Origin: a bacterium
GTDB lineage: Bacteria; UBA8248; JACPRG01; G963555815
Length of the DNA stretch: 64,000 bases
Direction: 5' to 3'
NCBI GenBank assembly: GCA_965249615.1
Contig: CBDFMI010000006.1
Location: forward strand, 444,132-508,131
A model generated the notes under the pieces. That model saw only the letters and a list, made by a program, of their open reading frames with translations, had not been told where the DNA came from and made no database searches. The position numbers and the translations under genes were made by a program. Below, piece after piece: positions 734-46,666 of the stretch (its first letter is position 1; each line of letters opens with the position of its first letter).

Positions 734-813
734 TCGGTTGCTTGGGGGCCTCCGTCGGAGGAGAGGAAGATAGCGCTGTTTTTCGAAGCCCGTCTTTGGA
801 ACCAGACCTCTTG

Positions 814-3432: not shown

Positions 3433-3669
3433 TTAAGGAGCCGGCTGTTCCGACTGTTCCGGCTGTTGGCCGGCCCTCACCACGTTCACGGCCCTTGGGC
3501 CTTTGGCGTCCGTCTCGATGTCGAACTCGACGGCTTCACCTTCCGAAAGGGTCCTAAAGCCATCTCCCTTTATGGACGAAAAGTGGACAAATACGTCCTT
3601 TCCGTCTTCCTGGGTGATAAAGCCAAACCCCTTCGCTTCGTTGAACCACTTCACGGTCCCACGCGCCAT
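3433..3669 (-). CDS. cspA: Cold-shock protein (CspA family)
   Basis: [33 protein letters not shown] carries canonical RNP1/RNP2 cold-shock domain motifs. Confidence 0.95.
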
Positions 3670-5666: not shown

Positions 5667-5769
5667 GGCGCCACTTTTTTACTAACAGATGTTCTCATCC
5701 AATCAGCCCATTCGCATCTGCTGTTCTCTTAATATATCGGTCTTCTATCGTCTGTGGGGAGGAGAAAAG

Positions 5770-9794: not shown

Positions 9795-9831
9795 AGGTTA
9801 AAGGGCTCGACTCGGACTTGGTGCACACAGC

Positions 9832-12039: not shown

Positions 12040-12129
12040 GGGTTAAAAAGTTCGCGTCGATCCTGGTGAAAAAGCAGGCTCACCTTTGGCCCGCGATCGG
12101 GTTTTTAGTTTGAGAGGACGTGGGTAAGA

Positions 12130-13806: not shown

Positions 13807-13807
13807 G

Positions 13808-14878
13808 ATGGCAGGTCTGATGACGAAAGTCTCCCATGCCCTTCGAGGGGGTTGGGGGACCCTTTTGAAGGTCGGGGTGAGTGGACTGCTCATCCTTGTC
13901 CTCATTTGGCAGGTGGATTTCGATCGGCTTTGGGTCGTCGTCCGGGATATGTCCCCCGCCTGGCTCCTCCTGGCGCTCTTCTTCAAGTCGGGAGGGGTAT
14001 TCTCGAGCATCCTTCGGTGGCGAGTGCTTCTGAAGGGACAGGACCTCGCCGTCCCTTTAAAAGTCCTCACCTCCTCCTTTCTCGAAGGCCGTTTCTTCGG
14101 CACCTTCACGCCGAGCACCATCGGCCTTGACGCCTATCGAACGTATGACCTGGCCAAGTATTCCGGCCGAACAGCGGCCTCGGTTTCAGTCACATTGGTG
14201 GATAAGGTGATCGGGCTGTTCTCTCTCTCCTTTCTCGTGGCGGTCACCTCATTTGCCGGCGCCCGGTTTGTTGGAGGGCAAGGGGTCTTCTCCCTTCTCC
14301 TCGTCTTCTGTGTCCCCCTCTCCCTGTCCCTGATCTTTCTCCTTTTTCCGGGGCTCCTTGGCCGACTCGTCGACATCAGGAGGTGGAAATCAGGAGGATG
14401 GGCGGAGAAGATGGGCCGTTTCGTCGAAACCGTCACCGTCTATCGCCACCACCGGATCCTCATTGTTCAGGCGGTCGGGCTCGCTATCTTGGTCCACCTT
14501 GGGACCACGCTCATGTATTACGGGACGGCCCTTTCGGTGCAAGCCCCGGTCAGCCCCTTGGACATCCTCTTCGTTGGGCCCCTGATGATCACGGCGACGG
14601 TCATCCCTCTTTCTGTGGCCGGGATCGGGGTCCGTGAGGGGACCTTTGTCTTCTTCCTCACTCGGGTGGGGATCGAGGCGGAGGCCGCCATCCTTCTCGC
14701 CTTTCTCGGGTTCCTCGTAGGCGAGGTCATCAGCCTTTTCGGAGGCTTCATCTTCCTGTTGCGCTCCCACGCGTATCATCGGCGTGAGGGGGGGGTCGCC
14801 GGGGCCGCGGAAAGCGGCCTGGGCAAAGCCGGGGGTGAGGAAGAGGCCGTGGGGACAAAGAAAGAGATTGGCTCTTGA
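13808..14878 (+). CDS. UPF0104 / lysylphosphatidylglycerol-synthase-TM-region family 'flippase-like' membrane protein
   Basis: SILRWRVLLKGQ...FLEGRFFGTFTPSTIGLDAYRTYDL motif and about 8 TM helices. ATG 13808 lies 1 nt after the upstream TGA and is preceded by GAGGA. Confidence 0.75.
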   Translation: MAGLMTKVSHALRGGWGTLLKVGVSGLLILVLIWQVDFDRLWVVVRDMSPAWLLLALFFKSGGVFSSILRWRVLLKGQDLAVPLKVLTSSFLEGRFFGTFTPSTIGLDAYRTYDLAKYSGRTAASVSVTLVDKVIGLFSLSFLVAVTSFAGARFVGGQGVFSLLLVFCVPLSLSLIFLLFPGLLGRLVDIRRWKSGGWAEKMGRFVETVTVYRHHRILIVQAVGLAILVHLGTTLMYYGTALSVQAPVSPLDILFVGPLMITATVIPLSVAGIGVREGTFVFFLTRVGIEAEAAILLAFLGFLVGEVISLFGGFIFLLRSHAYHRREGGVAGAAESGLGKAGGEEEAVGTKKEIGS

Positions 14879-16551
14879 GACGCCTCCTCATCATCGGCGT
14901 CGACGCCGGCACCCTGGACCTCATCGAGCCGTGGGCCCGAGCGGGTGATCTCCCCCATCTGGCCCGTCTCCTCAGGGAGGGGGCCTATGGGCGAGTCCAG
15001 TCGACCCTCCCCCCCTCCACCTATCCCGCCTGGACCTCCTTCATGACCGGTCAGAACCCCGGGCGGCACGGTCTCGTGGACTTCACCTTGAGGGAGGGAG
15101 GGCGCTATGCCGTCAGATTCGCCAGCTCCCGAGACCGGCAAAGTGCTAGTTTGTGGGGGATCCTCAGTGAGGCCGGCCGAAGAGTCGCCGTCCTCGGCAT
15201 GCCCGCCACATACCCCCCTGAAGCCGTCAACGGCTGTATGGTCAGCGGATTCGACTCCCCCCTAGCATGGCGTCTCAACGAGAGCTTTTTTCATCCTCGA
15301 GGGCTCCACCGGGAGGTCATACAGGAGGCGGGACTCTTCCCGCTCTCGGCCTGCCGGGAGGATCGGATCGGAAAGGGCTGGCACGAGCGGGCCTATCGGG
15401 AGATCCTGAAATCACTGGAGCAAGAAACTCGCGTGGCGGAGTACCTCCTGGGCCGGGAAGCGTGGGATTGCTTCTGCGTCGTCTTCGGCCAGACAGATAC
15501 GGTGTGCCATCATTTCTGGAAATTCTTCGACCCATCCTCTCCCCGATATGACTCAGAGGGGGCGAGGCGCTTTGGAGACGCCATCCGTCAAGTCTATCGG
15601 CGTGTGGATTCAGCCATCGGTTCCCTGCTGCAAAAGGCGCCCGATGACGTCACGGTCCTCATCGTCTCGGACCACGGAGCGGGGGGGGCAGGAAACCAGA
15701 TTATTCATTTAAACGCTTGGCTGGCCGGGGAGGGCCATCTGACCTTTCGAAAGGGGGGGGTGGGCTACCGTGCCCTTTCAGCCCTGAAGACGCTGGGCCT
15801 CGGCTATCTCCCGAGGAGGGTTCAAGAACAGGTCTTTCGTGCGGGCGGGGGCAGGCTGGCAAATGGGCTAGAATCCCGCTTGCGTTTCGGCCAGATCGAA
15901 TGGGCGAAGACCCGGGTCTATTCCGAGGAGCTGGGTTATTTCCCCTCTCTTTGGATCAACCTTCGGGGGAGGGAGCCTCAGGGGACGGTGGAGCCCGGCA
16001 GGGAATATGAGGATCTGAGGGACGAGATCATCAGCCGCTTAGAGGTTCTCAGACACCCCGTCACGGGGAGGCGCCTCGTTGAGCGGGCCGTTCGGCGAGA
16101 GGAGGTTTATTGGGGCCCCTTTGTGGACCGGGTTCCTGACATTCTCCTGGAGCTCGCCCTCGACGAGGGCTATAGCTACTCCTGCCTTCGAAGTCCAGCC
16201 CGCTCCCAGGGCCCCTTCGTTCGCTCTCTCCAGAGAGCGGAGGGGGCCAGGGGCCAGGGGATGAACGGCTCACACCGACCAGAGGGGTTTTTCGTTCTCT
16301 CGGGTGAGGGGGTGCGCCCGGGGAAGTGCCGGTTCACCCCCCATCTCATGGACTTTGCCCCGACGCTTCTCGCCCTTTTGGGGATCACCCCTTCGGTGGG
16401 GATGGACGGTCGGGTCTTGGAAGAAGTCCTGAGCGTCCCTGAGCCTCATCCCGTCCCCGTCGCCGTGGCAGGGGAAGAGACGCCTTCGGCGGCCCAGGGG
16501 TGGGAAGGCACGGCCTTCCGGCGGCTTCGGGACCTTGGATACCTGGAATGA
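14875..16551 (+). CDS. NPP-like alkaline-phosphatase-superfamily protein 2
   Basis: Paralogue of 12130-13806 (IIGVDAGTLD, PPSTYPAWTSFMTGQNPGRHGLVDF, LIVSDHGAGG). The TTG start overlaps the upstream stop (TTGA). Confidence 0.8.
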   Translation: MRRLLIIGVDAGTLDLIEPWARAGDLPHLARLLREGAYGRVQSTLPPSTYPAWTSFMTGQNPGRHGLVDFTLREGGRYAVRFASSRDRQSASLWGILSEAGRRVAVLGMPATYPPEAVNGCMVSGFDSPLAWRLNESFFHPRGLHREVIQEAGLFPLSACREDRIGKGWHERAYREILKSLEQETRVAEYLLGREAWDCFCVVFGQTDTVCHHFWKFFDPSSPRYDSEGARRFGDAIRQVYRRVDSAIGSLLQKAPDDVTVLIVSDHGAGGAGNQIIHLNAWLAGEGHLTFRKGGVGYRALSALKTLGLGYLPRRVQEQVFRAGGGRLANGLESRLRFGQIEWAKTRVYSEELGYFPSLWINLRGREPQGTVEPGREYEDLRDEIISRLEVLRHPVTGRRLVERAVRREEVYWGPFVDRVPDILLELALDEGYSYSCLRSPARSQGPFVRSLQRAEGARGQGMNGSHRPEGFFVLSGEGVRPGKCRFTPHLMDFAPTLLALLGITPSVGMDGRVLEEVLSVPEPHPVPVAVAGEETPSAAQGWEGTAFRRLRDLGYLE

Positions 16552-17768
16552 GTGGAGAGAAAGGATCTCGTCGGAAGGTGGCCATGGTGGCCCCCTGTCC
16601 CTTCCCAAGCGTTCAGGGCTCCCAGATCCTGATCCAGGATCTGGCCGGGGGCCTCGAGAGGAGGGGACACGAGGTCCACGTGGTCACTTACCCCTTCGGG
16701 GGCTCCCGTCCGACCGCTTCCTTGCGGATCCACCGGGCTGCCTGTCCCCTTCGTTATGCCGTGGACCACCCGGGCCCTCATCTCTATAAACCTTTTCTGG
16801 ACCTCTTCGTCTTGAGAGAGCTCCTGCGGGTCATCCGCGGGGAGGGGATTGAGCTCCTCCACGCCCACAGCTATGAGGGGTTGCTCATCTCCCTGCTGGC
16901 CGGAAGGTGGACGGGCATTCCCGTCCTCTATCACAGCCACACCCTCCTCGAGGAGGAGCTCCCCACCTATTTTCGGGCCTCGTGGAAGCGCGCCCTGGCG
17001 CATTGGGTGGGCCGACTGCTGGACCGACAGCTTCCGCGTCGGTCAGACCATTGCATTGCCCTTTGTCAGAGAACCCTTGGGGCCTTTCGGGCCTTGGGGG
17101 TGGCGGCGGATCGCTCTTCCTGCATTCGTCCTCTGATCTTTTCCCCCGCCGATAAAACTCCTTCCAGGGTGGATGTAGAGCGCCATCCCTTCATCCTCTA
17201 TACGGGAAACCTCCACCCGTATCAGGATCTCAATCTCCTGATGGAGGGGTTCGCCGAGGTGGCCTCGAGGCTCTCAGAGGTCCGCCTGGTTATCGCCACC
17301 CATTCTGACCCTTCCCATTACGCCGCCCTGGCAAGGGCCCTGGGGCTGTCGGAGCGGGTCTCCTTTCGCGTGAAACCTCCCTTGGATGAAGAGTGGGGTT
17401 TGATGCGGAGGGCCGACCTCCTCGTCTGTCCGCGCCTTCGGTGCTCCGGCTACCCCATCAAGCTTTTGAACTACCTGGCGGCTGGAAGGCCCATCCTCGT
17501 CAGTGAGGGCTCGGCCGAGGGGATTCGCCATGGCGAGAACGGCTACGTTGTCTCTCGGCCTGAACCGAAAACCCTGGCGGAGGGGGCTATTCAAATCCTT
17601 CAGTCCCCCGCCTTGGCAAAACGGTTGGGCGAAGGGGCGGCCCGGACCTACCGGGAGGAGGTGGCGGAAGAGCGCTCCTTGTCGGCCATCGAGGCCATCT
17701 ACACGCAGTGTCTGGGGGAGGAGGGGAACGCGGCCCTCCTCGCCCACCCGAGGGAAATGGCCTCATGA
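16548..17768 (+). CDS. Glycosyltransferase family 4 (GT-B fold)
   Basis: KVAMVAPCPFPSVQGSQILIQDLAGGLERRGHEVHVVT N-terminal and C-terminal GYPIKLLNYLAAGRPILVSEGSAEGIRHGENGYVV (E-x7-E region). The ATG overlaps the upstream stop (ATGA). Confidence 0.85.
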   Translation: MSGEKGSRRKVAMVAPCPFPSVQGSQILIQDLAGGLERRGHEVHVVTYPFGGSRPTASLRIHRAACPLRYAVDHPGPHLYKPFLDLFVLRELLRVIRGEGIELLHAHSYEGLLISLLAGRWTGIPVLYHSHTLLEEELPTYFRASWKRALAHWVGRLLDRQLPRRSDHCIALCQRTLGAFRALGVAADRSSCIRPLIFSPADKTPSRVDVERHPFILYTGNLHPYQDLNLLMEGFAEVASRLSEVRLVIATHSDPSHYAALARALGLSERVSFRVKPPLDEEWGLMRRADLLVCPRLRCSGYPIKLLNYLAAGRPILVSEGSAEGIRHGENGYVVSRPEPKTLAEGAIQILQSPALAKRLGEGAARTYREEVAEERSLSAIEAIYTQCLGEEGNAALLAHPREMAS

Positions 17769-19168
17769 CCAAGGTCTTGATCCTGGGCCTCGATTGCGCA
17801 GACCCTCGCCTGGTCTTTGACCGCTGGCGACAAGAACTTCCGAACCTCAGACAGCTCATGGAGGCCGGCGTCTGGGGCCCTCTTCAGAGCACCATCCCCC
17901 CCATCACGGTCCCAGCCTGGGCCTGCATGATGACGGGGCGGGACCCTGGAGAGCTAGGGATCTATGGGTTCCGAAACCGGACCTCCTATCAGTACGGGGC
18001 CCTGGGGATCACCAGCTCTCTCTCGGTCCAAGAGGAGACCCTGTGGGACATCCTGGGCCGCACCGGCCGGGAGGTGGTGGTCGTCGGGGTCCCTCCTTCA
18101 TATCCTGTGAAGCCCGTCCGGGGCAGCCTCATCTCCTGCTTTCTCACCCCGAACGCCGAGGTCCCTTTCACGCATCCCCCTGAGCTCAAGGAGGAGGTTC
18201 AGCGTCTTGCCGGCGGGTACCTGTTTGACGTGGAGGGATTCCGGACCGACGACAAGCCCCGGCTCCTCCAACAGATCCACGAGATGACAGAAAAACGCTT
18301 TAGGGTCCTGAAACACCTACTCACCCGAAAGCCGTGGGACTTTTTTATGTCGATGGAGATCGGGGTGGACCGCATGCATCACGGCTTTTGGAAATTTCAC
18401 GATGAGGGCCACATCAAGCACCCCCCGCAAAACCCCTATCAGCACGTCATTCTGGACTATTACCGCTATGTGGACAAGGAGATCGGTGAGCTGGTGGAGT
18501 CCGTCGACGAGGACACGGTCATCATCGTCCTCTCTGATCACGGGGTGAAGAGGATGGAGGGGGGGCTGTGCGTCAACGAATGGCTCATGAAGCAGAAATA
18601 TCTGAGCCTCTCCGCCTACCCCAAGGAGCTCACCTCCCTCAGCAAGCTCGATGTGAACTGGGACCGGACCATGGTCTGGGGAGAAGGGGGGTACTATGGC
18701 CGGATCTATCTCAACGTAAAGGGCCGGGAACCCCAGGGGGTCATCGCCCCAAATGACGTGGAGAAGATCCGGGCAGAGCTGAAACAGGGCATGGAAGAGC
18801 TTTCCGACGAATCAGGGCGCCCCCTCGGGACCCGCGTATTCTATCCCGAGGAGGTCTATCAGGAGGTCCGGAGGATCCCGCCCGATCTCATCGTCTATTT
18901 TGGAGACCTGGACTGGCGCTCTGTCGGGACCGTGGGCCATGGCTCGATCCACACCCGAGAGAATGACACGGGCCCTGACGACGCCAACCACGACACCCAC
19001 GGGATATTCATCATGGCGAAGAAGGCGGACCTCAAAGGGGGCGGGACCGGTCTGGGAACCCGCCTCGACGGTCTCAGCCTCTACGACGTGACCCCCACCG
19101 TCCTGGACCTCCTTGGCCTTCCCATCCCACCCTCGATGCACGGGCGAGTGATTTCTCCTAGAGCCTGA
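17765..19168 (+). CDS. NPP-like alkaline-phosphatase-superfamily protein 3 (divergent)
   Basis: LILGLDCADP, PPITVPAWACMMTGRDPGELGIYGF and IVLSDHGV. ATGA overlap with the GT4 gene. It lacks the shared C-terminal tail, and the HG of the TG-x-x-PG-x-HG motif is LG here. Confidence 0.8.
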   Translation: MTKVLILGLDCADPRLVFDRWRQELPNLRQLMEAGVWGPLQSTIPPITVPAWACMMTGRDPGELGIYGFRNRTSYQYGALGITSSLSVQEETLWDILGRTGREVVVVGVPPSYPVKPVRGSLISCFLTPNAEVPFTHPPELKEEVQRLAGGYLFDVEGFRTDDKPRLLQQIHEMTEKRFRVLKHLLTRKPWDFFMSMEIGVDRMHHGFWKFHDEGHIKHPPQNPYQHVILDYYRYVDKEIGELVESVDEDTVIIVLSDHGVKRMEGGLCVNEWLMKQKYLSLSAYPKELTSLSKLDVNWDRTMVWGEGGYYGRIYLNVKGREPQGVIAPNDVEKIRAELKQGMEELSDESGRPLGTRVFYPEEVYQEVRRIPPDLIVYFGDLDWRSVGTVGHGSIHTRENDTGPDDANHDTHGIFIMAKKADLKGGGTGLGTRLDGLSLYDVTPTVLDLLGLPIPPSMHGRVISPRA

Positions 19169-22045: not shown

Positions 22046-23464
22046 TTATCTCCCGGTGGCGGGCTCTAAATTCACCTCGATATAGCGCGCAATCTGGGGG
22101 TGGACTCGGGAGATCTCGTGGTAGATCTGCTGAGCCGCCCTCCGGTAGGTGAAGTGCCCCTTGGGGTCGGAGCGGAGCTTCACCACGTGCATCACCTCCC
22201 GGAGGTTCATCTGCCAGAGGAAGCGGCGGTGATGAGCGTTTAGGACAAAGTAGGGGGCCTCGTTCGGAAAATCCGCCAAAAACTTCTCAAAACACTTCTC
22301 GGCCTTGTCCACCCCTGCCAAATATTCTTGTTTCAACCCGGCGTCCTCGACGAGCTCGGGGATCGAGAACCCGTGGCGGATGGTCGGGGCCTGAGTGCTC
22401 TGGCTGCACATCCGGTGGCGCTTGAGGTCGAGGAAGGCCCCCTGGTCCACGAGACACTCGAAGGTGTAGGTCAGGTACTCCATCTCCCGGATGGGGATGT
22501 CAAAACGCTCTATTCGGCTCAGGGCCTCTTCAATGACTTTTTCCCGAGCTTCTTGGGGCATCTGTGCCACCCTCTCCCGGATGGCCTCGTAGGGGAGATG
22601 ACTGTATTTGAACAAGATGGCCGCCGCCAGGGCGACGTCGGGGTTTTCGGGGACCTGAACCAGCCGGGCATAATTTTCCTGAGGGCCGGACGCCTTTGAG
22701 ACCGGGGAGCCGTTGGTCATGGTAGAGGCGACGAGCTTCCTGAGGGCCGCCTCCGTGTCTCTCAGATAGGCGTTGTCGTCTGCATACTTGACGAGGGTTG
22801 GGGCGGCCGCCTGGCTGACCTCCTTCAGGGTGGTCCCGATCTGTTGGATTTCGGACAGGTCGTGGGAGAGCATCTTGGTGATGGCGTGCTCCAGGTGTCG
22901 GGCGTTGACGGTCATCCCCACATTGGCCAGGGCGGCGGTGGGGAGGAGAAAGCGCGAGCGGTCGAGGGCGTGGGCCCTCACGCGGACGTTGTATCCCCGA
23001 TCCGTCTCGTTCTCCCTCCTTTGGAGGACCCCCTTCTCTTTGATGAAGGCGTCCAGCTTCGTCTGGACGGCGTGGTAGTTCTCGAACATCCACTGCATGG
23101 CCTCGCGGTATTTTTGGCCGAGGGGTGAGGCGTCCACCTCGTCTGGGACATAATAGTCGTCCGGCTTGAAAACCTGATAGCGGGAGGATTTTTCGGTGTA
23201 GGAGGCGAGACGGTTCGCCTCGATGACTTCCGTTGCGTAGCGCGAAACATTCTCGATGGCGATGGAGAGGACGGCGTGCTCGGCCACCGAGGCGTGCCCA
23301 TAGCCGACGACCCATTTCTCATGGAACTCGGCCGAGGCGCTTTCGGTCAGCTCCTTGGCGATCTCGTCAAAGGCCTTTGGGGAGCGACTCGTCTTCGCGA
23401 AGGCGACGGCGACCACCTCGGGCGGGAGGTCCCGGAGGAGATAGATGCGGCGTTTTTTGTCCAT
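22046..23464 (-). CDS. ThyX-like FAD-dependent thymidylate synthase family protein, double-domain (about 470 aa) form
   Basis: N-half: GHASVAEHAVLSIAIENVSRYATEVIEANRLASYTEKSSRY. C-half: YTFECLVDQGAFLDLKRHRMCSQSTQ and the VKLRSDPKGH tail. These are ThyX signature elements spread over two halves. Confidence 0.7.
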   Translation of the reverse strand: MDKKRRIYLLRDLPPEVVAVAFAKTSRSPKAFDEIAKELTESASAEFHEKWVVGYGHASVAEHAVLSIAIENVSRYATEVIEANRLASYTEKSSRYQVFKPDDYYVPDEVDASPLGQKYREAMQWMFENYHAVQTKLDAFIKEKGVLQRRENETDRGYNVRVRAHALDRSRFLLPTAALANVGMTVNARHLEHAITKMLSHDLSEIQQIGTTLKEVSQAAAPTLVKYADDNAYLRDTEAALRKLVASTMTNGSPVSKASGPQENYARLVQVPENPDVALAAAILFKYSHLPYEAIRERVAQMPQEAREKVIEEALSRIERFDIPIREMEYLTYTFECLVDQGAFLDLKRHRMCSQSTQAPTIRHGFSIPELVEDAGLKQEYLAGVDKAEKCFEKFLADFPNEAPYFVLNAHHRRFLWQMNLREVMHVVKLRSDPKGHFTYRRAAQQIYHEISRVHPQIARYIEVNLEPATGR

Positions 23465-23595: not shown

Positions 23596-25074
23596 CTATG
23601 GGACCAGGGCGATGGCCGACGCCCCTTGGAAGAAAGGGGCCGCTGAGGCCTTAACCGCGGAGAGCAGGGGGTCGGGATAGAGCCCGATCAGGAGGACTCC
23701 GACCACCATCAAGCCGAGGGCGAGACGGAGTGGGACGGAGGTGGAGATTTCGACCTTTCCGGCCGGTTCCACCATGTACATATTCACGACGACCTTGAAG
23801 TAGTAGTAGACGGAGAGGACGCTGTTCAGGACCCCGATGAGGGCCAGCCAGATATAGCCTGACTCGATGGCCGCCGAGAAGAGATAGAACTTCCCGACAA
23901 AACCCGCCGTCGGCGGGACCCCCGCCAGAGAGAGAAAGAAGACGACAAAGCCGATGCCGGCCAGGGGGTGGGCCCTCGCGAGTCCCCGAAAATCCTCCAC
24001 CCGGTCTCCTCGGAAGTTTTGGCGGCACAGGAGGATCACCATGGCGAAGGCGCCCATGTTCATGAAGATGTAGACGGCCAGGTAGAGGAGGACGCTTGCC
24101 ATCCCGATCTCGCTGCCGACGACGAGGCCGATCATGACGTAGCCGGCATGGGCCACCGAAGAGTAGGCCAGGAGCCGTTTCAGGTTGGACTGAACCATGG
24201 CGGCGATGTTGCCCCAGGTCATGCTGAAGACGGCCAGGAGCCAGAGGAGAATGGCCCACTGGTCGGCGATCCCCTCGAAGGCGACGGCGAAGATCCGGAG
24301 CAACCCCGCGAAGGCCGCCGCCTTGGTCCCCACGCTCATGAAGGCCGTGATGGAGGTGGGGGCTCCCTGGTAGGCGTCCGGGGCCCACATGTGGAAGGGG
24401 ACGAGGGCGATTTTGAAGGCGAACCCAGCCACGATCATGATGACAGAGAGGGTGAGGAGAATATTGGGGCCTGTCATCTCCCCGAAGGCGGCATGCATGG
24501 CGGCGAGGTTCGTCGTCCCCGTAATGCCGTAAGCGAGTGCGATTCCGTAGAGGATGATCCCCGAACTGAAAGCCCCCAGGAGAAAGTATTTGATCCCTCC
24601 CTCTTGGGACAAGAGATCGCGCTTCATGAAGCCGACCAGCATGTAGATGGGGATGGAGAGAAGCTCCATGCCGATGTAGATGGTCAGGAGGTCGCTCCCC
24701 CCGGCCATCACCATCATCCCGATAACGCTGAAGAGGATCAGGGCGTAGTACTCCCCCAGGTGAATCTCCTCTATCGAGAGGTATCGCAGGGAGATGAGGA
24801 CCGTGAGGACGGTGATCGCCAGAAAGATGAACTTGAAGAAGATGGCGAAGGAGTCCACCCGGTACATGTCGCTGAAGAGGCTGGCCTCCATCCCGATCAG
24901 GGGGAGGGTGAGGAGGCCCGTCACGACGACCCCGAAAAGCGTCAGGAGGCCCAAGAGCGCCTTTCGCCTCTGGGGGACAAAGAGGTCCACCAAAATCACG
25001 AGGCAAACGAGGACCGTCATGGCGATCTCCGGCATGATCGCAAAAAGGTTGACGGCGGGGAGCTTAAGCGGCAT
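23596..25074 (-). CDS. nuoN: NADH-quinone oxidoreductase subunit N
   Basis: 14-TM antiporter-like subunit pattern. Last gene of the nuo operon. Confidence 0.9.
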   Translation of the reverse strand: MPLKLPAVNLFAIMPEIAMTVLVCLVILVDLFVPQRRKALLGLLTLFGVVVTGLLTLPLIGMEASLFSDMYRVDSFAIFFKFIFLAITVLTVLISLRYLSIEEIHLGEYYALILFSVIGMMVMAGGSDLLTIYIGMELLSIPIYMLVGFMKRDLLSQEGGIKYFLLGAFSSGIILYGIALAYGITGTTNLAAMHAAFGEMTGPNILLTLSVIMIVAGFAFKIALVPFHMWAPDAYQGAPTSITAFMSVGTKAAAFAGLLRIFAVAFEGIADQWAILLWLLAVFSMTWGNIAAMVQSNLKRLLAYSSVAHAGYVMIGLVVGSEIGMASVLLYLAVYIFMNMGAFAMVILLCRQNFRGDRVEDFRGLARAHPLAGIGFVVFFLSLAGVPPTAGFVGKFYLFSAAIESGYIWLALIGVLNSVLSVYYYFKVVVNMYMVEPAGKVEISTSVPLRLALGLMVVGVLLIGLYPDPLLSAVKASAAPFFQGASAIALVP

Positions 25075-25077
25075 CTC

Positions 25078-26673
25078 CTACCTGCTCCATTCTGTGGTCA
25101 GGTACTGGTGCTGTCTCAAGGCCTCAGACGCCTGGGCGGACAGGCTTTCGGGCGTCCCCCGGGCCAGCTCCACGTGCTGGATGAGGTTCTTGACGCTCGG
25201 TTCCATGATTTCGAGGAAAGGCTTGGGGTACATCCCGATCCAGAACATGAGAAGGAGGATGGGGAGCATGTAGGCGACTTCGCGGCGGTTCAAGTCCGGG
25301 AGGTTTTGGTTCTCCTCATGGGTCACGGCCCCGAACATCATCCGCTGGAAGAGCCAGAGCATATAGCCCGCCCCGAGGACGATCCCCGTGACAGCGAAGG
25401 CGGCGTACACCGTGCTCGTCTGAAAGACCCCAAGGAGGATGAGGAATTCTCCCACGAAGCCGTTGAGGCCGGGAAGCCCAATGGACGAGAACATGGCGAT
25501 GGCGAAGACCACCGTGAAGACCGGCATCACGCGCGCGAGGCCGCCGTAGTCGGCGATCATTCGGCTGTGTCTTCGCTCATAGAGGATCCCCACGATCAAG
25601 AAGAGGGCCCCGGTGGAGAGACCGTGGTTCAGGTTCTGAAGGAGGGCCCCAAGAAGACCCTGGGGGTTCAGGGCGAAGATCCCCAGCATGACGAACCCGA
25701 GATGGCTCACGGAGCTATAGGCCACCAATTTTTTAATGTCTTTCTGGGCCATGGCCACAAGGGCCCCGTAGATGATCCCGATGATGGCCAGAAGGGCGAT
25801 GAAGGGGACGAGGTTGAAACTGGCCCTGGGCAGCAGGGGGAGGCTGAAGCGGACGAAGCCGTAGGTCCCCATCTTGAGGAGCACCCCGGCCAGGATGACA
25901 CTCCCCGCCGTGGGGGCCTCCACGTGGGCGTCGGGAAGCCAGGTGTGGAAGGGGAACAAGGGGACCTTGATGGCGAAGCCCACAAAGAGGGCGAGGAAGA
26001 TCCAGAACTGAAAGTTCTCGGGCAGCTTCGGCGCCATCCGGTAGAGCTCAAGCAAATTAAAGGTGAACTCGCCGGAGCCGTAGATGGGGTCGGCGTTCAG
26101 GAAGTAAAGGGCCAGAAAACCCAGGAGGAGGAGGACGCTTCCGAAGAGTGTGTAGAGGAAAAACTTGATGGCGGCGTAGAGCTTCCGAGCCCCCCCCCAG
26201 ATGCCGATGAGGAAATACATGGGGACCAGCATGACCTCCCAGAAGACGTAGAACAGGAAAACGTCAAGGGCCATGAAGACCCCCAGCATCCCTGTCTCCA
26301 GGATGAGGAGGCTCACGTAGTACTCTTTTTGCCGCTCTCCGATGTTGCTGAAGGAGCAGAGAACCGCGACGGAGCTGAGGAGCGTGGTCAGGATGATGAG
26401 GGGGAGGCTGATCCCATCGATGCCAAAGAAGTATTGGACCCCGATGGATGGGATCCACTCCGCGCGTTCGACGAACTGCATTTGGACATTGCTCGGCTCA
26501 AAGTAGGGGATCATGAAGAGTGAGGAAAAGAGGGAGATCAGCGAGACGCCGAAGGCGAACCATTTGATGACGAGTGGTCGCTGCCTGGAGAAGAGGAGCA
26601 TGATCAAGACGGCCCCTACGATGGGGACGTAGGCCGTCATCGAAAGGACGGGGAAGCCGAGGGCGTTTGTCAT
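25078..26673 (-). CDS. nuoM: NADH-quinone oxidoreductase subunit M
   Basis: Antiporter-like subunit with WLPDAHVEAPTAGSVILAGVLLK motif. Confidence 0.9.
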   Translation of the reverse strand: MTNALGFPVLSMTAYVPIVGAVLIMLLFSRQRPLVIKWFAFGVSLISLFSSLFMIPYFEPSNVQMQFVERAEWIPSIGVQYFFGIDGISLPLIILTTLLSSVAVLCSFSNIGERQKEYYVSLLILETGMLGVFMALDVFLFYVFWEVMLVPMYFLIGIWGGARKLYAAIKFFLYTLFGSVLLLLGFLALYFLNADPIYGSGEFTFNLLELYRMAPKLPENFQFWIFLALFVGFAIKVPLFPFHTWLPDAHVEAPTAGSVILAGVLLKMGTYGFVRFSLPLLPRASFNLVPFIALLAIIGIIYGALVAMAQKDIKKLVAYSSVSHLGFVMLGIFALNPQGLLGALLQNLNHGLSTGALFLIVGILYERRHSRMIADYGGLARVMPVFTVVFAIAMFSSIGLPGLNGFVGEFLILLGVFQTSTVYAAFAVTGIVLGAGYMLWLFQRMMFGAVTHEENQNLPDLNRREVAYMLPILLLMFWIGMYPKPFLEIMEPSVKNLIQHVELARGTPESLSAQASEALRQHQYLTTEWSR

Positions 26674-26714
26674 AGAGGCGAAACTCCCAGTCAGGACTTA
26701 GAAGTTATCTTTCC

Positions 26715-28748
26715 TCATCCGAGAAGGAGGAAGAGGCTCACGGTGATGAAAATGCCAAGGAGCATGACCAGGGCATAGTTCTGGACGACGCCCGTCTGAA
26801 GGCGGCGAAGCCCCCGGGCCCAGTTGATGAGAATGACCCCGATCCCATTCACGGCGCCGTCCACCGTTTGAAGATCGAAAATGCCAGACAGCTTGCTGAG
26901 GGCCACCGTTCCCCATGAGACCCCGTTGACAGCCCCGTCCACACCCTTGGCGTCAGTGCCCGAACAAAGATGAGCCAGGCGTATCGAGGGCCGTATGAAG
27001 ACGGCGTGGTAGATCTCGTCCACCCAGTATTTATTGAGGAGGAGCCGGTGGACTCCACGGAATCGCTCGGCCACCTTGGCGGGGAGGTCTGGCCGCTTTC
27101 GATACATGTGGCGGGCCAGCATCCACCCCGACACCCCCACCACCACCGAAAAGACGGCGAGCCACAGCTCCAGAAGGCCGAATCTCCCTGATTTGTTTTC
27201 GGCTGAAGCCGCCACCAGCTGGATGCCGGCATGGCCCCCGTCTGGGAAGACTGGCGCCAAATGCTCGTGAAAGAAGTTCATCTGCGGGATGCCGACCCAG
27301 CCCCCCAGCAGGGCGAGGACGGCGAGGATCACCAAGGGAACCGTCATCACGGCGGGGGATTCGTGGACATGGGAGACGACGTGAGGGTCGCCCCGGGATT
27401 CTCCGTAGAAGGCGAGATAGATGAGGCGGAACATGTAGAAGGCCGTCATGAAGGCGGTGATGATCCCCAGGGCGTAGAGGAAATAGTGGCCGCCCTTAAA
27501 AGTCTCGGCCAGGATCTCGTCTTTGCTGAAGAAGCCCGCGAAGGGCGGAATCCCGGCGATGGCGAGGGCCCCCATGTAAAAGGTGATGGCCGTGACGGGG
27601 AGGCGGCGACGAAGCCCCCCCATGTAGCGAAGGTCCTGCCTCCGCCCCTCCTCCGGGTCGGAGTGCAGGGCGTGGATGACGCTCCCCGCGCCGAGGAACA
27701 TGAGGCCTTTGAAAAAGGCGTGGGTCATGAGATGAAAGATCCCGGCCCCGAAGGCCCCCACCCCAAGGGCCATAAACATGTAGCCGAGCTGGCTCACCGT
27801 GGAGTAGGCCAGGACCTTTTTGATGTCATTCTGGACGAGCGCAATGGAGGCGGCGAAGATGGCCGTGAGGGCCCCGACCAGAGCCACCACGCTCATAGAC
27901 ACGGGGGAGAGGAGATACAAGGCGTTCGAGCGGGCCACCATGTAAACCCCGGCGGTCACCATGGTGGCGGCGTGGATGAGGGCGCTGACCGAAGTGGGGC
28001 CTTCCATGGCGTCCGGAAGCCAGGTGTAGAGGGGAAGCTGGGCCGATTTCCCCACGGCCCCCACAAAGAGGAGGAGTGTAATGGCCGTCGCCGCGCCGGC
28101 GATGGCGGAGCCCGCCACCGCTGCCCCGGCCTGATCGAAGACGCCTGCGTAGTTCAGCGTCCCGAATGTCTGGAAGATGAGAAAGAGGCCGAGGAGGAAA
28201 CTCGCGTCCCCGATGCGGTTCATGATGAAGGCCTTTTTTCCCGCGTCGGCGGCTGACTTCTTGTGGTACCAAAAGCCGATGAGGAGATAAGAACAGAGCC
28301 CCACCCCCTCCCAGCCGACGAACATGAGGAGGTAGTTGTTGGCCAGGATGAGAAGGAGCATCGAGAACATGAAGAGGTTCAGGTAGGCGAAGTAGCGGGA
28401 GTAGCCCGGGTCCCCACGCATATACCCGGCCGAGTAGACGTGGATGACGAACCCCACCCCCGTTACCACGAAGAGCATCACGGCGCTGAGGGGGTCCAGA
28501 AGGAACGCCACCTCGACCAGAAGGCTCGGCACCGGGATCCACTCAAAGAGGCGCACCTCACCGCTCAGGCCCCGGAAGACCGCCTGATAGAGGAGGAGGA
28601 GGGACAGCCCCAGAGAAAGGCCGGTGGAGATAATGGCGGGCCAGTGGGCTTTCCTTCCGATGTAGCGCCCGAGGAATCCGTTCACCAAGACCCCCAGGGC
28701 CGGAAAGACGAGGACGAGAGGCAGAAGATTCAGCACTGATATCACCAC
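26715..28748 (-). CDS. nuoL: NADH-quinone oxidoreductase subunit L
   Basis: 677 aa with [22 protein letters not shown] and a long C-terminal lateral-helix region. Confidence 0.9.
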
Positions 28749-29044
28749 TTCAACAGGTTGATCTCGTCGACGTTTAGGGCGGCTCTTTGCCGGTTGATGG
28801 AGATGATGAGGGCGAGTCCGACGGCGGCCTCGGCCGCCGCCACCGTGATGACAAAGATGGCGAAGACCTGCCCCGTTAGGTTCCCATGGGCCCTGGAGAA
28901 GGCTATCAGGGTCAGGTTGACGGCGTTCAGCATGAGTTCGATGGACATCAGGATGATCATGATGTTTCGCCTGGTCAGGACCCCGACGGCCCCAATCAGG
29001 AAGATGATGCCCCCCAGGGCGAGGTAGTAAGGAATGGGAACCAT
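28742..29044 (-). CDS. nuoK: NADH-quinone oxidoreductase subunit K
   Basis: 100 aa, 3 TM, with the ...[12 protein letters not shown]... motif. Confidence 0.9.
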
Positions 29045-29566
29045 TTACTTAATCTCTCGCTTGGCCAGCACGATGGCCCCGATCATGGCCGCCAGGAGGA
29101 GGAGGGAGGCCACCTCAAAGGGGAAGAGGAACTGGGTGTAGAGAACGCCCCCGAAGGCCTCGGTGTTGCCTATCTCCGCGGCGGCCTTCGCCCCCTCTGC
29201 GACAACCCCCGCCGGGGGCAGCAATTCGAAGAATCCCCCCAACAGGATGACCAGGAACTCGGCGGCCAGGAGCCCACCGATGATGAAAGCGAAGGCCCGC
29301 TGGCGGTTCCACTGACGGACCCCCATCTGTTCGCGCACATTAACGAGCATAATGACGAAGACGTAGAGCATCATGATGGCCCCGGCGTAGATGAGGATCT
29401 GGATGGCAGCGAGAAACTCCGCGCCCAGCATGACGTAAAGGGCAGCCACGAAGAAGAAGCTGAGGAGGAGAGCGAGGGCGCTGTGGACCACGTTTCTCAG
29501 GCTGATGACCATCACGGAGGCGGCGATCATCCCGACCGCGAAGATGAGAAAGAATGGCCATTCCAT
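29045..29566 (-). CDS. nuoJ: NADH-quinone oxidoreductase subunit J
   Basis: 173 aa membrane subunit, positioned between K and H. Confidence 0.85.
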   Translation of the reverse strand: MEWPFFLIFAVGMIAASVMVISLRNVVHSALALLLSFFFVAALYVMLGAEFLAAIQILIYAGAIMMLYVFVIMLVNVREQMGVRQWNRQRAFAFIIGGLLAAEFLVILLGGFFELLPPAGVVAEGAKAAAEIGNTEAFGGVLYTQFLFPFEVASLLLLAAMIGAIVLAKREIK

Positions 29567-29579
29567 CTTGGAATCCCCT

Positions 29580-30662
29580 TTAAACGAGCTGCAGGACGAT
29601 ACCGGTGATAAAAATGTTCAAGAGAGCCAGCGGGAACATCATCTTCCACCCCAGCGCCATGAGCCGGTCATAGCGAAAGCGCGGCAGGGTCCCCCTGATC
29701 CAGATGAACATGAACATCCCGAACAGCACCTTGAGGAAGAACCAGAGAGGTCCTGAGATGAGGACGGCCTTCGTCACCCCCCCGATGTTCTGGACCAGGG
29801 AGGCCAACCCCACAGAGGCGGCGCCGACGGCCGATGCCACCAGGAAGGTGACCAGGTCCACGCCGCCCGAGATGATGGTTTCCAGGAACTGGGGGATTTG
29901 CCAGCCCCCGAAGAAGAGGATCGCCCCGATGGAGCAGATCACCATCATGTTGGCGTACTCAGCCAGGAAGAAGAAGGCGAACTTCATGCCGCTGTACTCG
30001 GTGTGGAAGCCCCCCACCAGCTCTGTCTCGGCCTCGGGGAGGTCGAAGGGGAGGCGGTTGGTCTCGGCGAGCCCGGCGACGAAGTAGAGGACGAAAGCCA
30101 GGGGCTGATAGAAGATGAACCAGACGTTCTTCTGGGCCTCGACGATCTCAAGGAGGTTCAGGGACCCGGCCACCATGAGAGGGCCGATTAGGGCGAACCC
30201 CAAAAAAATCTCGTAGCTGATGAGTTGGGCCGCGCTCCGGAACCCCCCCAGCAGGGAATACTTGCTCCCCGAGGCCCAGCCCGCCATGACGATGCCGAAG
30301 ACACCGAGGGAGGAGATCCCGAGGATGTAGAGGATCCCGATGTTGATGTTGGCGATGAAGAAGTTCCCCGAGATGGGGATGACCGAGTAGACGATGAAGG
30401 CGGGGATGAGGGCGAAGAGCGGGGCCATCAGGAAGACCGGTCGATCCGCCTGGTGCGGGATGATGTCTTCCTTGAGGAAGAGTTTTAGACCGTCGGCGAT
30501 GGGCTGAAGGAGGCCGTGGTAGCCGACCCGCATGGGCCCCATGCGCACCTGAATGTGCCCGATGACCTTCCGCTCGAAGTAGACCATGTAGGCCACCAGG
30601 AACGAGACCGCCCCCCAGATAATCAGGATCTTGATGAGGGCGAAACCAACCTCAAGCCACAT
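29580..30662 (-). CDS. nuoH: NADH-quinone oxidoreductase subunit H
   Basis: [32 protein letters not shown] and [26 protein letters not shown] motifs. Confidence 0.95.
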
Positions 30663-30701
30663 CTGTGTGCACCTTGCCTCCGCTAGGGGGGGTCGCTGAC
30701 C

Positions 30702-31826
30702 TCAGCGATCCACTTCCCCGAGCACAATATCGATGCTTCCGATGGCGGCGACGGCGTCCGAGATGAGGCCGCCCTGCATCATGGTGGAGATCGACTGCAG
30801 ATTCACGAAAGAGGGGGGACGGATCCTCAGCCGGTAAGCCCGGTCGGTCCCGTCACTGACTAGATAGTAGCCCAGCTCCCCCTTGGGACTCTCGATCCGG
30901 TGGTAGACTTCCCCCTTTTTTGGCTTCAACACCCGGGGAACCTTGGCCATGGTCTTTCCGGAGGGGAGGTCGGCGGCGGCCTGCTCGATGATGAAGGCGC
31001 TCTGGCGCATCTCCTCCACACGGACGAGGTAACGGTCATAGACATCGCCATTCTTTCCCACCGGGACGGTGAAGTCAAAATCCTCGTAGGCGGCGTAGGG
31101 CTCTGCACGCCGCACGTCATGGGCCACGCCGGAGGCCCTCAGGATGGGCCCACTGGCCCCGAGGTCAATGGCGTCCTCGGCGGAGAGAACGGCCACTCCG
31201 CGGGTCCTGGACTGCCAGATACGGTTCTCGGTGAGGAGGTCTTCATAATCGTAGATGGCCTTGGGGAACTCGCGGGCGAACTCCAAACACTTGTCGTAAA
31301 AAAGTTTGGGGGGGTCGTGGTAGACGCCTCCGACGCGGAAGGCATGAACCGTGAGCCTCGCCCCAAAGGCGGTCTCGAAAAGATCCAGGACCTTCTCTCG
31401 GTCCCGGAAACAATAGAGGAAGGCCGTCATGGCCCCGATGTCCAGGGCGTGGGTGGCGAGCCAGAGGAGATGACTCGCGATCCGGGTGAGTTCGGCTGTG
31501 ATGACGCGGATGTACTGGGCCCGGGCCGGAACCTCCATCTGAGCAAGCTTTTCCACCGTCTCCACATATCCCAGGTTGTTGGCTGGGGAGGCCACATAAT
31601 CCGTTCGGTCTGTGTAGGGAACGAACTGGGCGTAGGTGATGTTCTCGCCGATCTTCTCGACGCCCCGGTGGAGATAACCGATGTCCACGTCAACCCCTTG
31701 CACAATCTCCCCCTTCAGCCGAAGGATGACGCGAAGGACCCCGTGGGTGCTGGGGTGCTGGGGCCCCATGTTGAGGATGAGCTCTTCCGTCTGGGGGACG
31801 ATGGTCTCTGGGGTGACCTGGGTCAT
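30702..31826 (-). CDS. nuoD: NADH-quinone oxidoreductase subunit D
   Basis: NMGPQHPSTHGVLR, IGYLHRGVEK and a C-terminal IDIVLGEVDR. Confidence 0.95.
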   Translation of the reverse strand: MTQVTPETIVPQTEELILNMGPQHPSTHGVLRVILRLKGEIVQGVDVDIGYLHRGVEKIGENITYAQFVPYTDRTDYVASPANNLGYVETVEKLAQMEVPARAQYIRVITAELTRIASHLLWLATHALDIGAMTAFLYCFRDREKVLDLFETAFGARLTVHAFRVGGVYHDPPKLFYDKCLEFAREFPKAIYDYEDLLTENRIWQSRTRGVAVLSAEDAIDLGASGPILRASGVAHDVRRAEPYAAYEDFDFTVPVGKNGDVYDRYLVRVEEMRQSAFIIEQAAADLPSGKTMAKVPRVLKPKKGEVYHRIESPKGELGYYLVSDGTDRAYRLRIRPPSFVNLQSISTMMQGGLISDAVAAIGSIDIVLGEVDR

Positions 31827-31830
31827 AGTC

Positions 31831-32622
31831 TCACTCTCGATGGGCCATGGGCCGGGCGGCGGGCGGGATATGGCTTTCTACCCATTGGAGCCCGAACCCA
31901 TCCCCGCGAACGGGATACTCCTTTCGGAGGGGATGGCCCTCCCAGTCGTCCGGGAGGAGGATCCGTCTGAGGTCGGGGTGGCCCTCGAAATCAATCCCCA
32001 CCATGTCGTAGGCCTCTCGTTCGAGCCAGTTGGCCGTCCGCCAGATGTCAGACACGGTCGGGGCCGTCTCCGCCTCCCCAAGGCGGACCTTCAGCCGAAG
32101 GCGCCCCCTTCGCTCCAAGCCATAGAGGTGATAGACCACCTCGAAGGGGCGATCCCGGTCCGGGTAGTGGACACCGCAGAGGTCCGACAGGAAATTGAAA
32201 TGGTGTTGGTCTTTGAGGTGAAGACAAAGTGGGTGGATCTGGTCCCGCCGGACGACGACGGTGAGTTCGTCCTCTTTTCCCATGAAGGCGGAGACCTCTT
32301 CCACCCCTTCCCCTGAAAAGGCGCGAATGGCCTTCACCAGGGGGAGTTCCTCGAGATTTTCGCCGGGCTTTTTGTCCGCTTTGACCGGTGGCGGGGCCTT
32401 TTTTTGTTCCGAGGCCGGGGGTTTCTCAGCCGGAGGCGCTTTGGGCTCTTCGGATTCAGCCGTTGGAGGGGAAGCTTCGGGAGCGGCTGACTCTTCCCCC
32501 TCGGGCTTTTTGTCCGCCTTGACCGGCGGTGAGGCCTCTTTTTGTTCCGAGGCCGGGGGTTTCTCAGCCGAGGACGCTTCGGGCTCCTCGGGCTCAGCGG
32601 GGGCGGAGTTCTCTTCGGTCAC
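31831..32622 (-). CDS. nuoC: NADH-quinone oxidoreductase subunit C with about 95-aa Pro/Glu/Lys/Ala-rich repeated N-terminal extension
   Basis: The C-terminal 165 aa match NuoC ([14 protein letters not shown]..., [36 protein letters not shown]). GTG start lies after GGAGAG. Confidence 0.9.
32364..32590 (-). repeat. In-frame direct repeat (two copies of about 90 nt, 138-nt period) encoding the NuoC N-terminal extension
   Basis: Copies at 32364-32453 and 32502-32590 align without gaps and with few mismatches. They encode EKPPASEQK(E/K)A(S/P)PPVKADKKP. Confidence 0.85.
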
Positions 32623-32742
32623 CTCGTCTCTCCTCTAGACGACGACCCATCTAACCTGTGCAAAAATTCACAAAAGGCGGCCAAAAAAAAGCTTCCCGTT
32701 GTTCCTTTGGCCTCCCTGACTCACGGTCATCGTTTCCCTGGG

Positions 32743-33219
32743 CTACTTTCGAAGAAACTTTTCCTGCTGGATCTTCTCCTGCAGCTTCAGAATTCCCCAC
32801 ATCAAGGCCTCCGGGCGGGGAGGGCAGCCCGTGAGATAGATGTCGACGGGGACCACTTGGTCCACGCCCTGGAGGGTGGAGTAGGTGTTGAAAGGTCCTC
32901 CTGCCGTCGAGCAGCTCCCCATGGAGACCACCCATCGGGGTTCTGCCATCTGGTCATAGATCTTGCGCAAAACCGGGGCCATCTTGTAGGTGACGGTCCC
33001 GGCCACGATCATCACGTCCGACTGACGCGGGCTCGCCCTGAAGATGACCCCAAAGCGGTCGAGGTCATATCGGGAGGCGCCTGTGGCCATCATCTCAATC
33101 GCGCAGCAGGCCAGGCCGAACTGCATGGGCCAAAGGGCTGATTTTCGGGCCCAATTGACCAGGTAATCGAGGGTTGTCGTGAAGATGTTCTCCTCGAAGC
33201 GGTGTTCCACTACACCCAT
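32743..33219 (-). CDS. nuoB: NADH-quinone oxidoreductase subunit B
   Basis: [18 protein letters not shown] and GCPPRPE, which are the N2 cluster ligands. Confidence 0.95.
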
Positions 33220-33602
33220 TTAAGGGCCCCTTTGCGCCAGGCGTAGAAGTAACCGACGAGGAGGATGAGAATGAAGAGCATCATCTCGACGAGGCCAAAT
33301 AGGCCGAGCCGGCCGTAGACCACCGCCCAGGGAAACAGGAAGACCGCCTCCACGTCAAAAAGGAGGAAGAGGATGGCGACGATGTAAAACCGGATGGAAA
33401 ATTGTTCCCCCGCCCGCGTGAGGGGCGGGATCCCGCACTCATAGGGGGAGAGTTTCTCGGTGTCTGGCCGGTTGGGTCGGATGAGATAGGCCAGGAGGAG
33501 GGTCCCGATTCCGAAGGCCGCCACCACCAGGATGAAAATGAAGATTGGGACATAGGGATGGATGACAGTGTAGTCACTGAAAAACCGGTTAACCAGTTCC
33601 AC
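33210..33602 (-). CDS. nuoA: NADH-quinone oxidoreductase subunit A
   Basis: 130 aa, 3 TM, with YECGIPP and [14 protein letters not shown] motifs. Confidence 0.9.
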
Positions 33603-33714
33603 GCCGGGCCCCCTCGAAACCCCACATCCCTACTTAGTAATTATACTTTATTAGTCCCCGGAAGCGAAGACGCAACGGGAAAAAAGGTCTCCTGATCGGT
33701 CCTTGGATTTTTCT

Positions 33715-34032
33715 TCACGGCTTGAAGAAGACCTCGGTCAGACAGGGGTCGATCTCTGGTTTCAATTCCAGATAACGCTCACTTCGCTGGAGCTGGTTGA
33801 AGAGGGCCGTCTTTCCGGCTACGCCCAGTTCTGACCAGTTGACGCAAGCCTTGGCCTCCTTAACGAGGAGGTCCAGGCGCTTCGCCCGCTCTTTCTCATC
33901 TTCCTCATCGCCCGTCTCGGCCAGGGCCCGAAGGCGCTGGATGCACCCGGAGAGGGTGTCTTCCCGGGAAGGTAGAGACTCGAAGATATAGAGATAGCCC
34001 TCTATCCGCTGACGCAGGGCCTGCGCGTCCAT
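33715..34032 (-). CDS. Hypothetical acidic protein (105 aa) upstream of nuoA
   Basis: The internal ATG at 34032 gives MDAQALRQRIEGYLY.... The upstream part of the track ORF is R/P-rich and implausible. No family recognised. Confidence 0.35.
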   Translation of the reverse strand: MDAQALRQRIEGYLYIFESLPSREDTLSGCIQRLRALAETGDEEDEKERAKRLDLLVKEAKACVNWSELGVAGKTALFNQLQRSERYLELKPEIDPCLTEVFFKP

Positions 34033-46664: not shown

Positions 46665-46666
46665 GG

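Follow-up and report, generated by a model that had tools for sequence, protein, structure and literature searches.

How can a complex I operon serve its cell when it does not itself carry the gene for NuoI, the subunit thought to take up electrons from the cytoplasmic donor? The question is raised by the nuo operon in the 64,000-nucleotide stretch of bacterial DNA analyzed here (the window), in which ten contiguous open reading frames (ORFs) on the minus strand run nuoA-B-C-D-H-J-K-L-M-N with neither nuoI nor nuoEFG. We consider the most likely reading, at a probability of roughly 0.55, to be a functional second complex I to which a NuoI-type connecting subunit would be supplied in trans.

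Pfam and NCBIfam models assigned the ten ORFs unambiguously to NuoA, B, C, D, H, J, K, L, M and N, in agreement with a first-pass annotation of this DNA, and the genes are free of frameshifts and internal stops. The same ten genes stand in the same order in L001, a 21-kb locus (96% identity) on a 2,132,424-bp contig, which served for the ratios of nonsynonymous to synonymous substitutions (dN/dS). The operon is laid out as follows, with lengths in amino acids (aa) or nucleotides (nt).

33640-33645, minus strand: perfect TATAAT -10 hexamer, 38 nt 5' of the nuoA start, between a 105-aa ORF and nuoA
33210-33602, minus strand: nuoA, 130 aa, GTG start; PF00507, E = 3e-40; dN/dS 0.21 against L001
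32743-33219, minus strand: nuoB, 158 aa; TIGR01957 and NF005012, both above their cut-offs
31831-32622, minus strand: nuoC, 263 aa, GTG start; PF00329, TIGR01961
30702-31826, minus strand: nuoD, 374 aa, short Nuo11 type
29580-30662, minus strand: nuoH, 360 aa; PF00146, E = 2e-123
29567-29579, minus strand: nuoH-nuoJ spacer, 13 nt, the site of nuoI in canonical operons
29045-29566, minus strand: nuoJ, 173 aa; PF00499
28742-29044, minus strand: nuoK, 100 aa; PF00420, NF004320 above its cut-off
26715-28748, minus strand: nuoL, 677 aa; TIGR01974, 750 bits
25078-26673, minus strand: nuoM, 531 aa; TIGR01972, 633 bits
23596-25074, minus strand: nuoN, 492 aa; TIGR01770, 459 bits

The first-pass annotation had reasoned that spacers of 39 nt between nuoD and nuoH and 13 nt between nuoH and nuoJ leave no room for nuoI, and that the window holds no 2x[4Fe-4S] ferredoxin-like ORF. 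Both spacers were read directly in the sequence at these lengths, and the second statement was borne out by a six-frame motif scan and by phmmer. The motif C-x2-4-C-x2-4-C-x3-4-C occurs in none of the six frames of the 64 kb, and the sole CxxCxxC lies in an unrelated reading frame at 3446-3466. Queries with four types of NuoI and with NuoE, NuoF and NuoG gave a best E of 0.5 against every ORF of 30 aa or more from the window and from L001. Two defining sets of subunits were not found: NuoI/TYKY with its two Cx2Cx2Cx3CP motifs (clusters N6a and N6b), a core trait of complex I, within the 64 kb, and the N-module NuoE/F/G, a trait of the 14-subunit NADH:quinone oxidoreductase, in the window and L001.

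Recurrence and ancestry of the nuoI-less order

Gene order was mapped by phmmer on 85 loci, and gene tables were used for five more. The clade was defined by NuoH at least about 60% identical and holds the window, L001-L008 and L086-L089 (14 loci including the window). nuoH is followed directly by nuoJ in all 14. Twelve of them have a further, nuoI-bearing nuo operon upstream, with 145-175 nt between its nuoN and the start of the ten-gene operon. This upstream operon is fully visible only in L088 and L089, and it is a complete nuoABCDEFGHIJKLMN in both. The usual layout is a 24-gene array in which the second set is without precisely E, F, G and I, and these four carry all the iron-sulfur (Fe-S) clusters upstream of N2. 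The recurrence of the order in 13 further loci from independent assemblies argues that it is neither a product of chance nor a feature of the assembly. L088, a tandem-type genome, also encodes at 1-1314 (minus strand) a 553-aa fused NuoE-NuoF-like protein, divergent from the 14-gene operon, with the domains 2Fe-2S_thioredx, Complex1_51K, SLBB and NADH_4Fe-4S.

The NuoH of the window lies on a contig of 881,271 bp, and its cluster at 90% identity or more adds contigs of 2,132,424, 2,152,400, 1,419,664 and 272,636 bp; these five lineage contigs are linear and possibly incomplete. The next relatives, at 58-71% identity, were named Nitrospinota or Tectomicrobia by their depositors. The nuoI-less order is a conserved operon type, found in Nitrospinota- and Tectomicrobia-type bacteria and kept under purifying selection. 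A full-text literature search found no description of a ten-gene nuoI-less operon of this type. The string 'nuoABCDHJKLMMN' in PMC8004040 was considered as a precedent and set aside, as it describes a 12-gene cluster and is probably a typing error for ...HIJ.... Only NUO-1 and a complete NUO-2 are mentioned in a comparative-genomics paper on Nitrospinota (PMC10839748).

The phylogenetic placement called for in the first-pass annotation was obtained from neighbour-joining trees on single proteins. In the NuoH trees the nuoI-less loci of the window type form one clade, whose nearest neighbours are L091 and then the 11-gene nuoABCDHIJKLMN operons (Nuo11) of Aquificota and Thermosulfidibacter takaii. 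Bootstrap values were 96/100 for the nuoI-less clade together with L091 and 93/100 for that group with the Aquificota type; the nuoI-less clade without L091 reached only 51/100. NuoD matched NF008974/PRK12322 over its full length with 506.4 bits, just below the curated cut-off of 522, and its best Protein Data Bank (PDB) match was Aquifex aeolicus NuoC/D 2 (7q5y_B). Because NuoD is short and finds its best match in Aquifex NuoC/D 2, and because the sister groups carry nuoI, the operon descends from a Nuo11 complex without N-module and lost nuoI near the base of the clade. Paralogues of the first and second set inside one genome are 41-64% identical, and this divergence together with the short NuoD means that the second set did not originate by duplication of the first.

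Nuo11 operons (Aquificota, T. takaii, Chlorobi and the Bacillus type) likewise have nuoD next to nuoH without nuoEFG and a short NuoD, and share the charged N-terminal extension of NuoC, but they carry nuoI between nuoH and nuoJ, whereas the window operon is without this eleventh gene. The canonical 14-subunit NDH-1 has the same seven membrane subunits plus NuoB, NuoC and NuoD with all catalytic residues; it differs in having E, F, G and I, and the NuoD found here is of the ~370-aa type without the ~25-aa 'MEALIHHF' segment. Photosynthetic NDH-1 is an N-module-less complex I fed by ferredoxin. NuoB and NuoD matched its NdhK and NdhH chains in the PDB search, but photosynthetic NDH-1 retains the ferredoxin-facing NdhI as well as NdhS, NdhV and NdhO, none of which is in the window operon. 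Second copies of complex I are also found in nitrite oxidizers and their relatives, as NUO-2 of Nitrospina gracilis (PMC3578206) and as the 2M complex. NUO-2 has nuoI and a modified nuoEFG scattered over the genome, whereas the window operon has neither. Reverse electron flow from quinol to ferredoxin has been proposed as the task of such second copies, including those of Nitrospina (PMC3578206). The 2M complex has two nuoM genes and a longer lateral helix in its NuoL; the window operon has one nuoM, and its NuoL is just ~30 aa above the median of nuoI-containing relatives.

Other nuo clusters also omit the gene of an Fe-S subunit of the quinone module. L091 (Tectomicrobia metagenome-assembled genome GCA_016192455.1, 7478-18585) reads nuoA-C-D-H-I-J-K-L-M-N without nuoB, with a 215-nt gap at the place expected for nuoB, and Acidobacteriota loci read nuoA-C-D-H-J-K-L-M-N without nuoB and nuoI. 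Such nuoACDHJKLMN clusters in Acidobacteriota were noted previously (bioRxiv 10.1101/197269). The partial clusters of both kinds often adjoin another nuo operon, which implies supply in trans. The window type differs in keeping nuoB and omitting nuoI alone, and the acidobacterial losses lie elsewhere in the NuoH tree and are independent of it. nuoH was also directly followed by nuoJ, without nuoI, in one Methylomirabilota locus and another Tectomicrobia locus; these adjacencies lie elsewhere in the NuoH tree and are independent events.

Catalytic residues and selection

Cys38, Cys39, Cys103 and Cys132 of NuoB align with the N2 ligands of mitochondrial PSST/NDUFS7 in an end-to-end alignment that includes the CC, C and CPP motifs, and all four were kept in 11 of 11 clade members, confirming the first-pass statement that NuoB retains its N2 cysteines; with this, all facts given in the first-pass annotation proved correct. 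NuoD retains the His pair of QHPSTHG and the Tyr of DRTDY at the quinone site, which we take to be His34/His38 and Tyr87 of T. thermophilus. It is without NiFe cysteines, with no CxxC at either end, and scored 499.1 bits with TIGR01962 (cut-off 459.35) and 490.5 with NF004739 (cut-off 360). Also encoded are the other parts of a complex I core, NuoH, NuoA, NuoJ and NuoK with three antiporter-like subunits that keep their conserved Lys/Glu residues. The traits of group 4 [NiFe] hydrogenases, Ehr and Mrp were not found, as there are no NiFe cysteines and the N2 ligands and quinone site are intact, and in NCBIfam the Nuo models outscored the Mrp and hydrogenase models by far.

Selection on these genes was assessed between the window and L001, where dN/dS was 0.09-0.21 for all ten, the same range as in adjacent housekeeping genes. 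Columns at least 85% conserved among nuoI-containing relatives were largely kept in the nuoI-less clade: 24/26 in NuoA, 67/73 in NuoB, 22/27 in NuoC, 123/132 in NuoD, 97/110 in NuoH, 157/165 in NuoL, 165/169 in NuoM and 78/96 in NuoN. No conserved column of NuoA-D had switched to another consensus in the nuoI-less clade. Charged columns conserved to the same degree were all kept in NuoL and NuoM, and in NuoN one of the 15, Arg427, was just 75% kept, with Lys in its place in the window and in L001. When two distant tandem genomes were compared, the second set was conserved about as well as the first (NuoB 73% vs 77%, NuoD 64% vs 65%, NuoH 67% vs 62%). Because conservation between genomes matches that of the first set, dN/dS is low and the pump residues are kept, the second set is evidently in use. 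Judged from its sequences, the product of the ten genes is predicted to be a redox-active, quinone-reactive proton pump, neither a relic nor an Mrp-like antiporter.

Two subunits carry peculiarities of their own that were considered as NuoI substitutes and rejected. In NuoH of the window a hydrophobic stretch of 43 aa (residues ~258-300, nt 29763-29891) is inserted between the last two conserved helices; by topology reasoning this insertion lies on the periplasmic side. In alignment A1 it was present only in the window, P0001 (96% identity) and P0002 (85%), and the NuoH of all other nuoI-less clade members is 317-323 aa long. It holds no cysteine motifs and is absent from most nuoI-less members. 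The first ~95 residues of NuoC form an acidic, low-complexity extension rich in Pro, Ala, Lys and Glu, whose N-terminus matches the NuoC start of L001; it too is without cysteine motifs and is also found in nuoI-containing Aquificota. Within nuoC a direct repeat of 97 nt with 88% identity (32364-32460 and 32502-32598, spaced 138 nt) duplicates ~46 aa of the acidic extension, and NuoC is 263 aa in the window as against 218 aa in L001; this 5' duplication is recent. The adjoining nuoB-nuoC spacer (32623-32742, minus strand) is unusually long for this operon at 120 nt and holds GGCCAAAGG…AAGCTTTTTTTTGGCC, a hairpin with a T-run. In L001 a 33-aa ORF was called in this spacer, and its sequence is not conserved in the window.

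Possible sources of NuoI

From gene content and order, ancestry, selection, residues and tandem layout we infer both a supply of NuoI in trans and an electron partner. The ten genes encode the complete membrane arm (NuoA, H, J, K, L, M and N) together with the quinone module (NuoB with N2, NuoC and NuoD) of a second, paralogous complex I of Nuo11 ancestry that lost its own nuoI near the clade base. Quinone or quinol chemistry at N2 would be coupled to proton pumping, and the 2x[4Fe-4S] connecting subunit would be obtained in trans, in most members from the complete nuoA-N operon immediately upstream and in the window's lineage from an unlinked NuoI-type gene. In view of this ancestry, ferredoxin acting via NuoI is the most plausible partner on the cytoplasmic side, and the enzyme may run in reverse, from quinol to ferredoxin, for the reductive tricarboxylic acid (TCA) cycle; alternatively the partner would be NADH, if NuoEFG were also shared.

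Supply in trans is favored because L091 and the acidobacterial clusters run without the indispensable nuoB, because NuoB, NuoC, NuoD and NuoH show no remodelling, and because we know of no enzyme of the complex I or group 4 hydrogenase type that lacks a NuoI homologue. The first-pass annotation had offered two alternatives, that nuoI and the electron-input module are encoded elsewhere or that another connecting subunit takes their place. The first stands for the operon type, with 12 of 14 loci adjoining a nuoI-bearing operon, but for the window's lineage none was found in the searches described below. One case that the annotation had set against itself, an order common in the lineage with nuoI immediately outside the window, is half borne out. 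The order is indeed common there, but no nuoI occurs in the 7 kb upstream of the operon in L001, a stretch that the window also covers, or in the rest of L001.

The window's own lineage is where this reading meets most resistance. The 14-gene operon is absent within 30 kb upstream and 23 kb downstream of the ten-gene operon in the window, and within 7 kb upstream and 4 kb downstream in L001. The tandem layout occurs on either side of the branch that leads to the window, which makes the solitary operon the derived state. NuoI of L002 and NuoG of L088 were searched against a collection of 5.8 billion proteins, covering the best 120 matches, with the members listed for the ten nearest NuoI clusters and for ten of the nearest NuoG clusters, two large clusters in part. 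These searches recovered the two proteins from tandem-type genomes, including the contigs of L006, L007, L008, L086, L088, L089 and others, and, among the members listed, from none of the five lineage contigs. The 14-gene operon is thus probably missing from the window's lineage, or at least from its 2.13- and 2.15-Mb contigs. Nuo11-type NuoI is just 38-45% identical to the query type, and a stand-alone copy would fall outside the best 120.

Several points weigh against a supply in trans. NuoI or NuoG of the neighbouring-operon type was not found on the five lineage contigs among the members listed, and the same neighbouring-type searches located no trans-acting nuoI for the window's genome. 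The solitary operon is under purifying selection, so the lineage would not depend on the NuoI of the 14-gene operon. NuoI is normally assembled together with NuoB, NuoC and NuoD. The second operon also appears to have its own promoter. The TATAAT at 33640-33645 is a candidate promoter of the ten-gene operon by its match to the consensus, and L088 has TTTACG-16-TATAAT in the corresponding gap, which separates the nuoN of its first operon from the nuoA of its second; in a scan for consensus promoters and terminators across the operon, promoters scored no better than in shuffled sequence.

The strongest competitor is an enzyme that works without NuoI. N2 would then be the sole bound Fe-S cluster, and a soluble carrier would dock in the vacated NuoI site and pass electrons to or from N2 directly. 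The likeliest carrier would be a 2x[4Fe-4S] ferredoxin, the fold from which NuoI derives, making the complex a proton-coupled ferredoxin:quinone oxidoreductase or the reverse. Such an enzyme would suit the solitary operon, its promoter-like site and the purifying selection on all ten genes in the window's lineage, as well as the failure to detect neighbouring-type NuoI or NuoG among the members listed on contigs of up to 2.15 Mb, and Nitrospinota outside Nitrospinia are said to need 'yet unknown ferredoxin-reducing complexes' (PMC10839748). On the other side, we know of no NuoI-less relative, NuoB, NuoC and NuoD show no clade-specific remodelling at conserved positions, the nuoI-bearing operon in tandem in 12 of 14 loci is a simpler source, and a stand-alone nuoI of the Nuo11 type, given its low identity to the query, would escape the search. 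We consider this reading unlikely; the strongest point in its favor is the solitary yet selectively maintained operon of the window's lineage. The further idea that in the window's lineage an N2-only proton pump, as the organism's only complex I, could be the ferredoxin-reducing complex of the non-Nitrospinia is put forward here with considerable reserve.

Isoenzyme formation is more doubtful still. The NuoE, F, G and I of the 14-gene operon would combine with either of two sets of quinone and pump modules, giving two NADH:quinone oxidoreductases that might differ, for example, in preferred quinone or in direction. The second set is without exactly the four subunits that carry the clusters upstream of N2, both sets diverged at similar rates, and paralogous nuo sets and complex I isoforms are also present in Aquifex aeolicus, where nuoEFG is single-copy. 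However, the Nuo11 ancestry and the 41-64% identity show that the second set did not originate as a duplicate for the same N-module, a single E, F, G and I would have to suffice for two versions of each other subunit, and the explanation would fail for the window's lineage if the 14-gene operon is really missing there.

The remaining two readings fare far worse. A decaying remnant, or a redox-dead Mrp-like cation/proton module without electron input, would fit a window without nuoI and nuoEFG, but it is already largely refuted by the low dN/dS (0.09-0.21), the lack of frameshifts and internal stops, the N2 cysteines and quinone-site His/Tyr kept clade-wide and a conservation equal to that of the canonical operon, and we hold it to be very improbable. 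That a nuoI in the operon went unseen through a sequencing or annotation error, being frameshifted or unannotated, was another case that the first-pass annotation had set against itself; it has a negligible chance, as the spacers are just 13 nt (H-J) and 39 nt (D-H), no frame holds a ferredoxin motif or similarity to NuoI, the order is identical across 13 independent assemblies and we found no evidence in its support.

Neighbouring genes and biological meaning

Upstream of the operon lie the 105-aa orphan ORF and genes for a UbiE-like methyltransferase and a DsbA-like protein, and downstream of it those for a long ThyX, ATP sulfurylase and APS kinase.

33715-34032, minus strand: acidic ORF of 105 aa, upstream of nuoA
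22046-23464, minus strand: ThyX-type thymidylate synthase, 472 aa, immediately downstream of nuoN; two Thy1 stretches, RHR motif

The 105-aa ORF has a dN/dS of 0.10, which marks a real gene under purifying selection, and is predicted to form a helical bundle (predicted local distance difference test score, pLDDT, 85.6). It matched no Pfam family and no PDB fold, and one true homologue (76% identity) was found among 1.84 billion representative proteins. The first-pass annotation had raised its possible conservation with the operon type, and this did not hold: the ORF is confined to the window's close lineage and absent from tandem-type loci. A role as a novel subunit was rejected on the lack of a Pfam or fold match, this absence and the -10 box that stands before nuoA. 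ThyX was likewise rejected as a flavoprotein input module, since it is a bona fide ThyX linked to the operon in two subfamilies only; it is also the neighbour in L001, L003-L005 and, after an insertion sequence (IS) insertion, L002, but not in L087, a tandem genome that is more distant.

Other features of the window are given for completeness. Five paralogous genes of the alkaline-phosphatase superfamily with Sulfatase/Phosphodiest domains occupy 7674-19168 (plus strand), interleaved with a lysyl-phosphatidylglycerol-synthase-like membrane protein, and G+C content is lower (52%) at 8-12 kb. A bifunctional fructose-bisphosphate aldolase/phosphatase (FBPase_3), typical of autotrophs, is encoded at 5689-6882 (plus strand). 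The MreB ORF at 45980-47692 (plus strand) is 570 aa long with its MreB domain starting at residue 242, which points to an N-terminal extension or else to a start codon placed too far upstream.

NuoI, or a homologue of it, is generally counted among the universal core subunits of complex I and all related energy-converting hydrogenases, and is the electron entry point in every member without N-module. Partial and split nuo clusters are already familiar; the interest here lies in the consistent, selected absence of a subunit regarded as core, in a widespread operon that retains N2, the quinone site and the complete pump and never encodes NuoI. Added interest comes from a lineage that seemingly has nothing to borrow NuoI from. 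If supply in trans is true, paralogous complexes would exchange Fe-S subunits of the quinone module freely, with consequences for assembly and for the construction of isoenzymes. If instead electrons enter at N2 without NuoI, the complex would represent a new architecture. Either outcome bears on how autotrophic Nitrospinota outside the class Nitrospinia may supply reduced ferredoxin to the reductive TCA cycle.

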